From Polaromonas sp. (GTDB lineage Bacteria > Pseudomonadota > Gammaproteobacteria > Burkholderiales > Burkholderiaceae_C): a stretch of DNA of 64,000 bases. The notes under the pieces are model-generated. The model had not been told where the DNA came from. It ran no database searches and saw nothing but the letters and a program-made list of their open reading frames with translations. The position numbers and the translations under genes are program-made. Location: NCBI GenBank assembly GCA_043774625.1, contig JAYVTG010000097.1:29283-93282 (forward strand). The letters are read 5' to 3'. Numbering within the stretch: position 1 is the first letter of the stretch; each line of letters opens with the position of its first letter. Positions 7,734 through 61,957 of this stretch are shown here, in pieces.

Positions 7734-7774
7734 CCAGCGTGGAATATGCGCGAGCAGCTATTATATTTATAGCG
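7734..7774 (+). repeat. REP-like 42-bp repeat, copy 1 (forward orientation)
   Basis: CCAGCGTGGAATATGCGCGAGCAGCTATTATATTTATAGCG. The same element recurs throughout the window. Confidence 0.9.
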
Positions 7775-7804
7775 TATAGAGTTTGCTTCCCAAGAAAATA
7801 CCCA

Positions 7805-7840
7805 TAAAAAAGCCGCCTGAATGACTTCGGCGGCTTTTTT
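7805..7840. terminator. Bidirectional rho-independent terminator (yacG / rpmG)
   Basis: aaaaaAGCCGCC-tgaatgacttc-GGCGGCTttttt, between convergent genes. Confidence 0.8.
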
Positions 7841-7856
7841 GATTCTGTGTACTGAA

Positions 7857-8024
7857 TTACTTCAGCTTGACTTCTTTGTAGTCCACATGCTTGCGAGCTT
7901 TTGGATCAAACTTGCTGATCAGCATTTTCTCGGGCATGGTTTTCTTGTTTTTGGTGGTGGTGTAAAAATGGCCGGTTCCAGCAGTGGATTCCAGCTTGAT
8001 TTTTTCGCGTGCGCCTTTTGCCAT
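7857..8024 (-). CDS. rpmG: 50S ribosomal protein L33
   Basis: Hand translation of the minus strand gives [55 protein letters not shown] (55 aa). It is below the ORF-track length cutoff. Confidence 0.92.
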
Positions 8025-8035
8025 GGTGCTTCTCC

Positions 8036-8269
8036 TTAAATCTGGCCACGTGCGCGCATGTCTGCGAGCACAGAGTCAATACCGTTTTTGTCGATCAAAC
8101 GCAAACCTGCATTGGTGATGCGCAAACGCACCCAACGGTTTTCGCTTTCGACGAAAAAGCGGCGGTATTGCAGGTTAGGCAAAAAACGACGCTTGGTTTT
8201 GTTATTGGCGTGGGAAACGTTGTTCCCCGTCATTGGGCCCTTGCCCGTTACTTCACATACACGTGCCAT
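8036..8269 (-). CDS. rpmB: 50S ribosomal protein L28
   Basis: [34 protein letters not shown] is a typical bL28. The internal ATG at 8269 is used rather than the longer ORF. Confidence 0.95.
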
Positions 8270-8455
8270 TACAGAGCACTCCTCAAGTGTAATTAACAGC
8301 TTTCGCTGCACCTCGCTCCGATCATTTGCACATTGCGCACAAATCACCCAGCGGTCTCATTTTGGGATAACCCAAAAGCCTTCAGTTTTTACCCGAAGCC
8401 TTTGATTATAGCTTTTTTCGGCACATTTTGGTCTTGCTAGGCGCGCCAAGGCCAT

Positions 8456-9406
8456 TTATGCGCCTTTTTGCTGCTCCAAAAAGCGCTGTGCGTCCAGTGC
8501 GGCCATACAACCCGTGCCCGCGCTGGTAATGGCCTGACGGTAGACGTGGTCTTGCACATCACCTGCAGCAAACACGCCAGGCACGCTGGTCATGGTCGCC
8601 ATGCCTTTCAAACCGCTTTGGGTGATGATGTAACCGTCCTTCATCTCCAGTTGGCCTTTGAAGATGTCGGTATTGGGCGAATGGCCAATGGCAATAAAGC
8701 AGCCTTTGAGGGTAATGTCTTCCGTAGCGCCTGTTTTGGTGCTCTTCAAACGTATGCCAGTCACGCCCGACGCATCGCCCAGCACTTCGTCCAAAGTGTT
8801 GAAGACCTTGAGCTCGATCTTGCCCTCTTTGACCCGCTCCATCACCTTATCCACCAAAATCGGCTCGGCCTTGAAGGTGTCGCGGCGGTGCACCAAATAC
8901 ACCTTGCTGGCGATGTTGGACAGATACAACGCTTCTTCCACGGCAGTGTTTCCTCCTCCCACCACACAGCAAATCTGGTCGCGGTAGAAAAACCCATCGC
9001 AGGTGGCACAGCCGCTCACACCGCGCCCCATAAAGGCTTCTTCCGACGGCAACCCCAGGTATTTGGCAGAAGCACCCGTAGCCAAAATGAGGGCGTCGCA
9101 GGTGTATTCGCCACTGTCGCCCTTGAGCGTGAATGGGCGTTTAGAAAAATCCACCGCACTGATGTGGTCGAAGATGATTTCGGTTTTGAAGCGTTCAGCA
9201 TGCTCCAAAAAGCGCTGCATCAGCTCTGGGCCTTGCACACCATGCACGTCGGCGGGCCAGTTGTCCACGTCGGTCGTGGTCATCAACTGGCCGCCTTGGG
9301 CCATGCCGGTAACCAGCACGGGGTTCAGGTTAGCGCGAGCGGCGTAAACAGCAGCGGTGTAACCCGCAGGGCCGGAGCCTAAAATCAATACTTTGGCGTG
9401 TTTCAT
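8456..9406 (-). CDS. trxB: Thioredoxin reductase
   Basis: FAD motif [10 protein letters not shown], redox-active CATCDG, and an NADPH motif [10 protein letters not shown]. Confidence 0.96.
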
Positions 9407-9597
9407 AAAAATGATCTAAGGGAAATACTACGGGGAGATAACAGCTATTGGGTTAAAGTTAGGGCTATTGTGCACAAAATCAATCAGCTTGCTGGGATGA
9501 AGGCTCGAATTTGTGTTCATGCTGCGTAAAGCTTAGTTACAAGGCAATGCCCGCAAAGGTCAACTTGCCATCATCCAATAACAACAGAGGGTCTGAC

Positions 9598-10272
9598 ATG
9601 TCGATGCTATCCAACTTAGAGCTCATTCGCCGGGTTCCACTTTTCTCCATGTTAACGCCTTCTCAAGCTGAAGCTGTTGCTGAAGCCGTTATCAAGCGTC
9701 GCTTCAAACGGGGCGAAATGATTGTGGAGCAAGGTAAAAAGTCCAACGCTTTGTTCATTATTTTGACAGGCCGTGCACGGGTCATCACCACAGACACCCG
9801 TGGGCGCGAGGTGATTTTGGCCAGTCTGGAGCCCGGAGACTATATTGGCGAGATGAGTTTGATCGACAACGAGCCGCATTCTGCATCTGTGCGAGCCGAG
9901 GTGCAAACCGACGTGCTGATGCTGGGTCGGGTGGAATTTGCCCGCTGCCTACCCGAAAATACGTCTATGGCCTACGCGGTCATGAAAGGCTTGGTACAGC
10001 GCCTGCGCCATGCTGACCGCAAAATCGAGTCTTTAGCCCTGATGGACGTGTATGGCCGCGTTGCGCGCGCATTGATCGAAGCTTCTCACACCGATACGGA
10101 AGGCTTGGTCGTCATTCGTGACAAAGTGTCGCGCCAGGATCTGGCCAAAATGGTGGGTGCATCGCGCGAGATGGTCAGCCGCGTGATGAAAGACCTGGAA
10201 GAACGCGGCTATATTGAGACACAGGACAACGGCTCTTTGGTGATTAAAGAGCGCCTGAGCACGATGGGTTAA
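9598..10272 (+). CDS. Crp/Fnr-family transcriptional regulator (cNMP-binding domain plus HTH)
   Basis: A cyclic-nucleotide-binding fold (GDYIGEMSLID) with a C-terminal HTH (SRQDLAKMVGASREMVSRVMKDL). The ATG at 9598 has AGAGGG upstream. Confidence 0.85.
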   Translation: MSMLSNLELIRRVPLFSMLTPSQAEAVAEAVIKRRFKRGEMIVEQGKKSNALFIILTGRARVITTDTRGREVILASLEPGDYIGEMSLIDNEPHSASVRAEVQTDVLMLGRVEFARCLPENTSMAYAVMKGLVQRLRHADRKIESLALMDVYGRVARALIEASHTDTEGLVVIRDKVSRQDLAKMVGASREMVSRVMKDLEERGYIETQDNGSLVIKERLSTMG

Positions 10273-10326
10273 GCGGGGCTTGCAAAGCAAAGTTTCGCTA
10301 AGACTTGGGGTAAGCTCAGACTTAAT

Positions 10327-60822: not shown

Positions 60823-60830
60823 CTTCGATG

Positions 60831-60872
60831 TTGCTATTAACTTCATAGCTGCTTGCGCATATTCTGCGCTGG
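60831..60872 (-). repeat. REP-like repeat, copy 11 (start of composite unit B)
   Basis: TTGCTATTAACTTCATAGCTGCTTGCGCATATTCTGCGCTGG. Confidence 0.9.
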
Positions 60873-60987
60873 CAATCCCCTGTTTTGCCTCCAAAATCCG
60901 CATACATACAGAGCCACAGACTGCGCACATCGCGCTCGCGCACCATAGGCTGTGGGCACGCGTAGCATGGCGGGTAGGCCTGTGCGC

Positions 60988-61016
60988 TTCGAGTTTTCAA
61001 GGGTTTGGGCTATAGT
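60988..61016 (+). promoter_or_regulatory. Candidate promoter inside composite unit B
   Basis: TTCGAG, a 17-nt spacer, then TATAGT, 32 nt upstream of the ATG at 61048. The same module occurs at 62074-62102. Confidence 0.35.
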
Positions 61017-61047
61017 GCAGGCAACACATTCGTTCGCGCAACTCGAT

Positions 61048-61320
61048 ATGAAAAAGGTATCTACCGAAATGGCTGATCAAGACATTCCTGAATTAAAGCG
61101 CGATCAGCTAGGAAAAGGGGTGCGTGGCAAGTACCTCAAACACTTCAATCAAGGTAGCAACGTCATCGTTTTGCAGCCCGAAATTTTGAAGGTATTTCCG
61201 ACTTCTGAGGCTGTCAATAAGGCTTTAGCAAGCATGCTGGCTTTCGCTCAGGAGACGCAAGGTTTAACAAGTCGCTCAGGTCGCTCAAGTCGGACACCGC
61301 GTAAACGCGCCGCCGTGTAG
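61048..61320 (+). CDS. Small hypothetical protein (antitoxin-like, orphan)
   Basis: 90 aa with DQLGKGVRGKY...VIVLQPEILKVFPTSEAVNKAL and a basic tail. No SD precedes 61048, and an alternative ATG lies at 61069. Confidence 0.5.
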   Translation: MKKVSTEMADQDIPELKRDQLGKGVRGKYLKHFNQGSNVIVLQPEILKVFPTSEAVNKALASMLAFAQETQGLTSRSGRSSRTPRKRAAV

Positions 61321-61362
61321 CTCCAGAGTTGAAACCGTCTCAGTTCAGTGTACGATCTTGCC

Positions 61363-61587
61363 ATGACTCCAACAGCAATCGAACAATCTGTACTCGGCTT
61401 GCCCAAGTCTGAACGCGCGCATTTGCTGCATTTGTTGCTCGATAGCCTCGATGCACCGTCGGAGTCTGATATACAGGAAACCTGGCTGAATGAGGCGCAG
61501 CGCCGCGCGCAGGATATTGACGCAGGCAGAGTCGAACTTGTGAGTGGCGAGCAGCTTGAGCGACAAGTTCAGGCGCTTTTTAAGTGA
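61363..61587 (+). CDS. Addiction-module antitoxin (Unstab_antitox / TIGR02574-like)
   Basis: LGLPKSERAHLLHLLLDSLD....D.QE.WLNEAQRRAQDIDAGRVELV. Its stop overlaps the GTG of the downstream toxin (GTGA). Confidence 0.75.
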   Translation: MTPTAIEQSVLGLPKSERAHLLHLLLDSLDAPSESDIQETWLNEAQRRAQDIDAGRVELVSGEQLERQVQALFK

Positions 61588-61877
61588 TCTATTGGCTCCA
61601 TCCCGAGGCCGCTGAAGAACACAAAAACCAGGTCGCGCACTATGAAGGGCTTCAAGTCGGGCTGGGAAAGCGGTACCACACTGAATTTCAAAATGTCGTG
61701 GCTTGGGTTTGTGCTTCGCCTGATCGCTCACGTATTGTTTTTGCCCCGGATATTCGACGTGCAATGTTTAAGGTTTTTCACTTTGACCTTGTCTACCGCG
61801 AAGTCGATGGCTCAGTCCAAGTGCTGGCCATCGCCCATCATCGTCGCCAGCCAGGGTATTGGATGGCTCGACTTTAA
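61584..61877 (+). CDS. ParE/RelE-family toxin
   Basis: 97 aa, translationally coupled to the antitoxin, with a C-terminal FHFDLVYREVDGSVQVLAIAHHRRQPGYW pattern. Confidence 0.75.
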   Translation: MIYWLHPEAAEEHKNQVAHYEGLQVGLGKRYHTEFQNVVAWVCASPDRSRIVFAPDIRRAMFKVFHFDLVYREVDGSVQVLAIAHHRRQPGYWMARL

Positions 61878-61915
61878 CTGGTTGATCGACCCAACTTTCG
61901 CGGGTCACCGTCAAC

Positions 61916-61957
61916 GTTGCTATTAACTTTATAGCTGCTTGCGCATATTCTGCGCTG
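61916..61957 (-). repeat. REP-like repeat, copy 12 (start of composite unit C)
   Basis: TTGCTATTAACTTTATAGCTGCTTGCGCATATTCTGCGCTGG. Confidence 0.9.

Follow-up and report, generated by a model that had tools for sequence, protein, structure and literature searches.

A repeated element in a Polaromonas chromosome segment

The stretch of DNA analysed here, called the window below, is a 64-kb segment of a Comamonadaceae-type betaproteobacterial chromosome with a G+C content of ~54% (Polaromonas sp., assembly GCA_043774625.1, contig JAYVTG010000097.1, positions 29,283 to 93,282). The genes recognized in it are zapD, yacG, ftsK, lolA, rarA, dgt, aroB, mrcA, cyaY, phoRBU-pstBACS, ppx, an ars-linked gene for a MIP channel, glmM, folP and ftsH. 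Scattered among these genes is a short repeated element, 42–68 nt long, that a preliminary description of the sequence had listed as thirteen full copies of a REP-like repeat. The most unusual property of this element is a concerted evolution that reaches into essential genes.

A fuzzy search of the window with the 27-nt core of the element as query, allowing up to seven mismatches, returned 14 sites, compared to none in 20 shuffles of the window, so that the similarity among the copies is above chance, as had been claimed. A covariance model (R1) was then built from an alignment of 24 element copies (A3). All 13 positions previously listed as full copies hold the element, with R1 scores of 60–78 bits (E <= 2e-15), and up to six weaker copies were detected besides. 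When a 12-kb locus from E. coli and a 20.7-kb locus from an Acidovorax-like genome (L021) were searched as controls with the same model, nothing was found below E = 0.9. Those weaker R1 matches (24–28 bits) that fall in hydrophobic coding segments may include false positives. The degenerate copy previously proposed at 37746 was supported, while the half copy proposed at 39517 consists of a hairpin only and is not significant (E ~0.3). Four further copies, at 40840-40907, 12705-12773, 10698-10765 and 21594-21661, were absent from the earlier list. Nine of the 13 full copies have cores with three or fewer differences from the consensus over 27 positions, and the loops of the 13 are every one different. 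The copies are, in order of position:

7710..7777, plus strand: full copy, 74.9 bits; core at 7734-7760 with 0 mismatches; intergenic, with the arm over the yacG stop codon (7719-7721)
10698..10765, minus strand: possible degenerate copy in the region of ftsK for four transmembrane segments (4TM), borderline (24.5 bits, E ~1e-4)
12705..12773, minus strand: diverged copy encoding the LolA signal peptide, 35.9 bits, E ~4e-8
15378..15445, minus strand: full copy, 77.3 bits; between a divergent PGAP1-like hydrolase gene (13977-15332, minus) and an open reading frame (ORF) at 15537-16130 (plus)
16778..16845, plus strand: in-frame copy in rarA, sense, 67.1 bits; encodes ASAEYAHAATKGIAI
21594..21661, minus strand: possible degenerate copy inside dgt, sense, borderline (24.0 bits, E ~2e-4)
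22533..22600, plus strand: full copy in the aroB-dgt spacer, 76.7 bits; the arm overlaps the dgt start codon (22538-22540)
33955..34022, minus strand: full copy flanked by mrcA and cyaY, which are convergent, 69.5 bits; arm over the cyaY stop codon (34006-34008)
37732..37788, minus strand: degenerate copy, located in one of the transmembrane segments of a membrane protein of 599 aa (FTTFLIAACATLAW), 28.4 bits, E ~8e-6
40840..40907, plus strand: diverged copy in the N-terminal transmembrane segment of a phoR-like kinase gene (VTTFLIAVCAGAALD), 45.7 bits, E ~5e-11
45111..45178, plus strand: full copy at the pstS-pstC junction, 76.2 bits; core at 45135-45161, pstS stop codon (45163-45165) in the hairpin loop
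46922..46989, plus strand: copy upstream of ppx that begins where a fasciclin-domain gene (46446-46922) has its stop codon, 62.7 bits
54098..54165, plus strand: in-frame copy in the ars-linked MIP aquaporin gene, sense, 77.4 bits; encodes ASVEYAQAATIYIAA
56308..56375, plus strand: copy at the 3' end of folP and upstream of glmM, 60.5 bits
56666..56733, plus strand: in-frame copy inside folP, antisense, 77.8 bits; encodes LLSFCELLAHIPRW plus QQADLIGKNAAES
59891..59958, minus strand: full copy forming the left end of a ~240-370 bp repeated intergenic module, upstream of ftsH, 69.9 bits
60829..60896, minus strand: full copy 6 nt past the stop codon of a BrnA/CopG-like antitoxin gene, left end of a long module, 75.4 bits
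61915..61982, minus strand: full copy 37 nt past a ParE-like toxin gene, left end of the module in its longest version, 77.1 bits

The earlier statement that most intergenic copies sit at gene ends holds: the majority of the non-coding ones touch a start or stop codon or run across it, at yacG, cyaY, pstS, dgt, folP, the BrnA-like gene and the fasciclin gene; the remaining gene-end copies begin at a stop codon or 6–37 nt past one. Not mentioned in the earlier description were three strong in-frame copies within coding sequence, namely those in rarA, in folP and in the gene for the MIP aquaporin. The copy at the folP 3' end encodes the last 11 residues of FolP (AMKKVATHA and those preceding), and a mutation in its core creates the TAA stop codon (56342-56344).

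Anatomy and fold of the element

The element consists of a weak, A/T-rich 5' arm of 24 nt, followed by a 27-nt core, CCAGCGYRGAATATGCGCRAGCAGCTA, and by a GCTA-loop-TAGC hairpin. In the CCAGCG orientation the consensus reads TTTA...G..AAAT..GCC.ATTG for the arm, then the core, an AT-rich loop of 6–9 nt and TAGCAA. The two-module layout (core and hairpin) described earlier was thus correct, and the further extension reported for several copies is real and corresponds to the weakly conserved arm. Contigs assembled from the source metagenome placed sharp limits on the core: on the pstS-pstC copy, the summed depth rises from ~1,400 to ~14,000 exactly at 45135-45161 and drops again in the loop. As this step covers exactly the 27-nt core, the core is the block shared among copies.

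Two small stems are possible, GCGYR/YGCGC and GCTA/TAGC, of 4–5 bp each. In a 10-pair stem model of the aligned copies, compensatory change was found at 0 of the 10 pairs. RNAalifold gave just six invariant pairs, the consensus fold is weak at -2.65 kcal/mol, and the folds of single copies, with z values from -3.6 to +0.5 against shuffles, were not consistently better than those of shuffled sequences. Intrinsic terminators and sigma-70 promoters at the copies were not above the shuffle expectation, with one promoter-like and one terminator-like match overlapping a copy. No Rfam family matched the copies in searches of the whole window at gathering thresholds and of the 59.5–64 kb region at E <= 1. 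A sigma-54 promoter and a dif/Xer site were also considered as identities for the element and dismissed by eye, as the spacing and the second arm are absent.

These results bear on the idea that the element acts in cis at the RNA level, as a terminator, a stabilizer of mRNA 3' ends, an RNase site or the target of a trans-acting small RNA, and so regulates many operons. Such a role would fit the many copies found 0–40 nt past stop codons and between operon genes, as at pstS-pstC, the Y/R positions of the core, which vary only so as to keep G-U or Watson-Crick pairs on the forward strand, and the presence of element-bearing contigs in a metatranscriptome. However, the copies occur in both orientations with respect to transcription (sense in rarA and the MIP gene, antisense in folP), and the missing compensatory change, the weak fold, the terminator and promoter counts and the Rfam searches all speak against it. 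We regard an RNA-level role as very improbable.

Orthologous copies at fixed sites

The age of the copies was assessed from orthologous positions in related loci (designated by L numbers), most of which come from metagenome assemblies of a small set of related genomes. All 25 aligned FolP orthologs (65–82% identity) contain the folP-internal copy, as does the DNA of all seven related loci compared (L003, L006, L007, L008, L015, L016 and L017), and the loop specific to this locus, CACAAAA.GATAG, occurs in most of these loci; five genomes carry it. The MIP copy is orthologous in L003, L008, L006 and L015, the copy at the folP/glmM junction in L008, L006 and L007, and a copy in rlmE is common to L008 and L016. 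At pstS/pstC, L003 holds an orthologous but half-decayed copy with an identical loop and 28 of 28 identical nucleotides in the hairpin half. A copy in coaBC is present in all 120 listed orthologs of at least 84% identity; the element segment had a constant length where the regular expression used matched, and the encoded peptides vary continuously. As judged from these comparisons, the copies are old and occupy fixed, vertically inherited sites across genera, in genomes whose FolP proteins are no more than 65–81% identical.

Cores evolve in concert within each genome

Within a genome, copies at unrelated loci carry a single version of the core, or dialect, and this includes the orthologous intragenic copies, while the loops stay specific to each locus. 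The dialects were as follows:

Window: core dialect CCAGCGYRGAATATGCGCRAGCAGCT
L007: GCCAATAGAATATCGCGGGAGCAGCT, with CACTG/CGTGGG variants in folP; all six copies read GAATATCGCGGGAGCAGCT with GCCAATAG
L006: GCGCAACCAGCT / ...GTGCGCAACCAGCT with ATAGTG, in all four copies inspected
L015: CGCAATTAAATAGG, at folP and at MIP alike
L016 and L017: ...CTGCGCAG.(A/C)TGCT, with TGCT instead of AGCT
L003: CCATAT for CCAGCG in folP and MIP; TTAT in the pstS copy

To quantify this pattern, identities were compared among 15 copies from three orthologous loci in six genomes, with permutation of the labels. Core identity was 0.74 for copies from different loci of the same genome versus 0.62 for copies of the same locus in different genomes (0 of 5000 permutations). 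For the loop and 3' arm the order was reversed, with 0.60 for the same genome and different loci versus 0.77 for the same locus in different genomes. Such permutation counts overstate independence, because the genomes compared are few and related. The cores therefore evolve in concert within each genome.

The same behaviour is visible in the encoded proteins. Indels that distinguish the dialects shift the folP frame locally, and one GAATAT block is read as AHIPRW, PRYSSG or AQYSIGL. Among FolP orthologs, the eight residues encoded by the core are 40% identical, compared to 85% for the hairpin-coded residues and 75–83% for the rest of the protein. Moreover, the core peptides of FolP and RlmE are 60% identical when both come from the same contig versus 44% across contigs (5 of 10000 permutations), and ELLVQHSIGLEA is a core peptide found in both FolP and RlmE of one contig.

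Since the dialects comprise multi-base differences and indels, they did not arise by independent point mutation site by site, and since the locus-specific loops have been retained, they did not arise by re-insertion. As neither process fits, a templated homogenization within the genome, operating within a block of contiguous homology, is required, and this process is presumably of the gene conversion type. An assembly artefact is unlikely as the cause of the dialects, because the repeat is shorter than the reads and final k-mers, the ORFs are intact and the peptide dialects recur in many independent database proteins, isolates included.

In-frame copies and protein length

Besides the three strong copies in the window, at least six in-frame copies were found in related loci. 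They lie in coaBC (Rhodoferax sp. TS-BS-61-7, L002), mutS (L010, L012 and L014), thiL (L013) and rlmE (L008 and L016), in an EamA transporter gene (L003) and in a gene for an MmeI-like type IIL restriction-modification protein (L001, 3105-4697, minus strand; ASVEYAQAAIKNVAN). Only three of the six reading frames are used: a forward frame, ASVEYAQAAT(I/F)IA; a first reverse frame, LL.(F)(C)ELLAHIPRW, in which the TAG of the stem is changed to GAG; and a second, hydrophobic reverse frame, AM..IAACAYSTLA. The latter recurs in those degenerate copies that supply the LolA signal peptide and the transmembrane segments of PhoR, FtsK and the 599-aa protein. The frames used give helix-compatible or hydrophobic peptides. 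When RlmE from L008 was compared to the window by tblastn, the sole match was the folP copy (47% identity over 59 aa), so that two unrelated enzymes share an element-coded segment.

Alignments to solved homologs gave the following net changes in protein length:

coaBC: 0 aa, no gap against three solved homologs
rarA: 0 to -1 aa against E. coli RarA (PDB 3pvs, 8g28)
MIP: roughly +4 to +6 aa
folP: +14 aa relative to Burkholderia DHPS
rlmE: +23 aa, precisely where the element lies
mutS: +32 aa

In coaBC, the element-coded IFI occupies the position of the conserved strand that precedes AAVAD. In mutS of L012 (1563-4244), the region with the +32 aa change (residues ~404-470) holds the element-coded LQKSELLAHIPRW, and LVSLLAHIANN, 40 residues further on, looks like a second, partial copy. 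Uninterrupted RlmE proteins of 217–223 aa occur in Acidovorax- and Verminephrobacter-type genomes and the other RlmE proteins have 232–289 aa; the rlmE copy is a true insertion for which an empty site exists. The Acidovorax-like L021 has an uninterrupted rlmE, and its folP, of E. coli-like length, still holds the hairpin-like GTGCTATCTTTTTTAGAGCA, which encodes the native helix LSFLEQ at the site taken by the copy's hairpin in other genomes; the MHM-to-DxG spacing of this folP equals that of E. coli. In coaBC, MIP, folP and rlmE, hairpin-coded residues align with native conserved residues and core-coded residues with variable ones, which suggests that a native hairpin-like sequence can act as an anchor beside which the core is written. 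The possibility that coaBC was the progenitor of the element was also considered: E. coli dfp is 44% identical over the coaBC element span, against 67% outside it, and this lack of excess similarity neither supports nor excludes such an origin.

An ordinary element of the MITE type (a miniature transposable element with inverted repeats), still transposing, could in principle produce dialects as lineage-specific subfamily bursts and shared positions as insertion hot spots. The presence/absence polymorphism of rlmE among Comamonadaceae, the great differences in copy density between genomes and the perfect cores in several copies of accessory and toxin-antitoxin regions are in line with this idea. 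However, no terminal inverted repeats were found, the ends of the element being TTTA... and ...ATAGCAA, and loops are orthologous at shared positions (folP in five genomes, the identical pstS/pstC loop), so that the same copy was retained there and not re-inserted. Moreover, the loops of one genome's copies all differ, unlike the products of a recent burst, and the copies in coaBC and rarA are length-neutral. Empty sites that would allow a comparison of target duplications exist solely at ~73% protein identity. Taken together, transposition of this kind is an improbable source of the observed pattern. Correia elements of Neisseria and the ERIC/RU MITEs resemble the element in being non-autonomous, small and sometimes intragenic with open frames (PMC2759123; PMC10969869), but the present family lacks terminal inverted repeats, any target duplications it may have are not recognizable, and its copies are ancient, orthologous and not polymorphic.

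Abundance and spread of the family

Copies are spaced at about one per 5 kb in this genome. The family extends beyond the window: the same core was found in Polaromonas and Rhodoferax genomes (a scan of a genome collection, with at least two loci), in five metagenome contigs, and in 275 unitigs of the source metagenome (run X1) and 696 of a second metagenome (run X3); diverged versions occur in most of the related loci compared. In the source metagenome, the summed depth of the core is ~14,000 compared to 19.7 at a unique flank, a ratio of ~700. At 13 copies per 64 kb, a genome of typical size would hold several hundred copies, which agrees in order of magnitude with the depth ratio, although relatives in the sample also add to that ratio. 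The unitigs of the source organism break within the copies. The density is uneven: there are 13 copies per 64 kb here but one per 8–21 kb in those related loci that have the fewest, and the Acidovorax-like locus has no copy at all. On a 4.9-kb contig of a Polaromonas metagenome-assembled genome (L001), three copies of the same orientation lie ~1–1.3 kb apart. We conclude that this is an old, high-copy family of short interspersed repeats belonging to one branch of the Comamonadaceae, which comprises Rhodoferax, Polaromonas, Curvibacter and Variovorax-like genomes.

A DNA-uptake-like signal, or another mark of self that is read by a protein, could also be abundant and lineage-specific; its copies would accumulate and its dialects shift through molecular drive, meaning biased uptake together with recombination, or through selection, as for the DNA uptake sequences (DUS) and uptake signal sequences (USS) of Neisseriaceae and Pasteurellaceae. 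DUS dialects (PMC3630211) and the co-evolution of USS with the proteome (PMC2817400) have been described, and these systems share with the present element both orientations, length-neutral copies in genes, preferred frames, conserved positions and lineage dialects. Further points in favour are the conserved positions in core genes, including the genome-maintenance genes mutS, rarA, ftsK and dgt, and the fact that no exact core match was detected among 2.9 million viral contigs. On the other hand, the conserved block spans 27–45 nt versus 9–12 nt for the cores of known uptake sequences, and the 27-nt core has sharp depth edges. DUS and USS have thousands of copies, and their cores change by single substitutions; here several substitutions and indels are present at all sites of a genome, beyond what independent mutation at each locus would give. 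In addition, only some of the genic copies are length-neutral, others being true insertions of 23–32 aa, the density is very uneven between related genomes, and the element has no known link to competence. An uptake or self signal thus appears quite unlikely.

The remaining candidate among known systems is a classical REP or REPIN family, moved by a RAYT (an HUH Y1 transposase) encoded elsewhere, whose genome-specific consensus would result from RAYT-REP co-evolution and copy turnover. REP/BIME elements are the nearest well-known analogue in lifestyle. Their uniformity has long been ascribed to gene conversion, as a proposal, and Gilson in 1987 and Higgins in 1988 reportedly noted a species-specific REP consensus at conserved positions and proposed such conversion, which counts in favour of this candidate. 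Like the REP, BIME and REPIN families of Enterobacteria, Pseudomonas and Stenotrophomonas, the element is short, present in hundreds of copies, hairpin-bearing and mostly located at gene ends or in operons, and in both cases the consensus differs between species though positions can be conserved. The clean presence/absence polymorphism at rlmE and the documented co-evolution of RAYTs with their REPs (PMC2817692) also argue for this explanation. The classification as REP/BIME in the preliminary description is therefore borne out as regards density, genome-wide occurrence, the small hairpin and gene ends, but it fails for the head, the palindrome, the inverted pairs and the extragenic location that characterize these elements (PMC2817692). 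A GT(A/G)G head is absent from the consensus of 24–25 copies on either strand, GTAG being limited to a minority with a CTAC stem. Instead of a GC-rich palindrome making up most of the element, the conserved part is a long non-palindromic core, with stems of 4–5 bp that show no compensatory change. Among the R1 matches in the window there are no inverted pairs of copies within 200 nt, and many copies are intragenic and in frame. Locus-specific loops beside changing cores are likewise not expected from excision and re-insertion. RAYTs are essentially confined to gammaproteobacteria, apart from a single case in betaproteobacteria that was acquired horizontally, and the betaproteobacterial family considered here is without known RAYTs (PMC2817692). 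As stated earlier, no transposase was found in the window: neither a RAYT/IS200-type nor a Y1 domain was detected with NCBIfam or Pfam models among ~40 of its ORFs, in a scan that was not exhaustive, or in the gene tables of related loci. For these reasons we consider a RAYT-driven origin doubtful.

Features adjoining the copies

The modules whose left ends are formed by the last three copies (59880-62300) are 74–89% identical, carry internal deletions, are non-coding and separate small cassettes in a stretch with 47% G+C. Among the cassettes are a BrnT/BrnA-like pair (60216-60822) and an Unstab_antitox/ParE-like pair (61363-61877). The three copies at 59.9–62 kb and their cassette-like layout led us to consider an integron attC array, which was rejected: attC core sites are lacking, no integrase was found among the ORFs scanned, the R''/L''-L'/R' palindrome with RYYYAAC...GTTRRRY ends is not present, and most copies of the element lie among housekeeping genes. 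A 46-nt direct repeat (59668-59713 and 59726-59771; 80% identical, 58 nt apart) lies in an unannotated ORF of 111 aa that ends in the copy at 59891-59958; this ORF matches no Pfam family and is perhaps not a gene. The genes rlmE (ftsJ) and yhbY lie upstream of ftsH in L008, L016 and L021 and are absent from the window (tblastn); it seems that the toxin-antitoxin island replaced them or interrupts the synteny (59528-60200).

A minor contig of the source metagenome (depth ~9.5; runs X1 and X2) was found in which the 76 nt that separate the start of glmM from the folP copy's hairpin (56277-56354) are replaced by 40 nt of unrelated sequence; a co-occurring relative therefore has the hairpin without the core at the folP/glmM junction. 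The 599-aa multi-pass membrane protein (36398-38197, plus strand) that contains a degenerate copy belongs to no Pfam or NCBIfam family at E <= 0.001. Finally, the Rfam tRNA model matches 1983-2057 (plus strand) with 37.2 bits (gathering threshold 29), yet ARAGORN reports no tRNA in the window; the match may reflect a tRNA that is degenerate or unusual, or else a structure resembling a tRNA.

Discussion

The best-supported reading of these data, to which we assign a probability of roughly 50%, is that of an interspersed repeat of selfish or structural nature, the cores of which are kept uniform by gene conversion, perhaps triggered by nicks or breaks. The family would persist mainly by templated homogenization of its cores, and not by fresh transposition. 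Ectopic gene conversion, or an enzyme-triggered overwriting of copies, would be confined to the block of contiguous homology, so that the copies of one genome would stay near-identical while their shared version drifts between genomes. This homogenization would override selection on the encoded amino acids, essential enzymes included. The trigger might be, for instance, a nick made at the hairpin by an element-specific nuclease or HUH enzyme. New copies would be rare and would arise by insertion, as in rlmE and mutS, or by overwriting between short anchors, as in coaBC and rarA. The element would then be essentially selfish, and its spacers, stop codons, protein tails and signal or transmembrane segments would represent incidental uses.

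Several points weigh against gene conversion of a selfish repeat. No conversion tract was seen directly, nor was a polymorphic conversion within a population. A core of 27–35 nt is at the lower limit of the homology usual for RecA-dependent exchange, and because it is so short, unassisted conversion among ~700 copies may be too slow. A dedicated enzyme was not found, in scans that fell short of whole genomes. This reading leaves unexplained the rise of new copies, notably the length-neutral ones of coaBC and rarA, and the copies may have a host function. Sampling was limited to a small number of genomes and loci that are not phylogenetically independent, and, as the loci come mostly from metagenome assemblies, repeat-induced effects of assembly or error correction are possible for single-base variants. 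Such effects cannot account, however, for multi-base and indel dialects that keep the ORFs open.

A more specific proposal, possible but on balance unlikely, is a dedicated copy-overwrite system, in which an element-specific enzyme replaces the 30–45 nt adjacent to the hairpin from a master template. Such an enzyme (candidates being a nuclease, an HUH enzyme, a reverse transcriptase or a single-strand annealing function) would recognize the GCTA-loop-TAGC hairpin on single-stranded DNA and would make use of short anchors on both sides, and new copies would be founded at native hairpin-like sequences such as those for IFI in coaBC, IYI in MIP and LSFLEQ in folP. In this way ~700 sites per genome could be synchronized, and each change in the master would rewrite short segments of essential proteins genome-wide. 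The outcome would be like that of short-patch double illegitimate recombination (bioRxiv 10.1101/2023.11.22.568220), but directed.

Two other repeat families invite comparison. Rickettsia palindromic elements (RPE) are likewise found in frame in unrelated housekeeping genes and are translated and tolerated by the enzyme (PMC10969869), and RPE-like insertions with an intact host protein are represented here by rlmE, mutS and folP. RPEs, however, are ~100–150 bp long and palindromic and always lengthen the protein, whereas this element has 42–68 nt, adds 0 aa in coaBC and rarA and has a homogenized core. The BRE family (Hot et al. 2011, PMC3110155) was reported in Polaromonas, Rhodoferax and Delftia, with some copies wholly within coding sequences, and is the one repeat with intragenic copies known before from Polaromonas and Rhodoferax, but it is ~90 bp long with ~69% G+C, forms tandem arrays, which are absent here, and reads TTTGCCGC...GGGGGGCAGCAAGC...; the sequences in the supplement of that study are unrelated to this element, and the identity was rejected. 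The element belongs to none of the REP, RPE and DUS families, though it resembles each of them. No description of this family was found in the literature, where core strings gave chance matches; the paper on the genome of Polaromonas JS666, cited for MITEs in a review, was outside this comparison.

If confirmed in complete genomes, the pattern would mean that hundreds of dispersed 30-nt sites, including some in essential single-copy genes, evolve in concert in a free-living bacterium. Homogenization at the DNA level would then prevail over selection at the protein level, as the FolP values suggest (40% in the core-coded part versus ~80% elsewhere). The uniformity of short repeats, whether due to transposition, gene conversion or co-evolution with a reader, becomes testable in this family, in which the loop serves as a barcode of the locus and the core as a barcode of the genome. 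There are practical consequences as well. Lineage-specific indels and hypervariable patches in FolP, RlmE, CoaBC and MutS can mislead alignments and taxonomy based on signature indels, and metagenome assemblies break at each copy. Conversely, the dialects could be a sensitive marker for the assignment of contigs to genomes.

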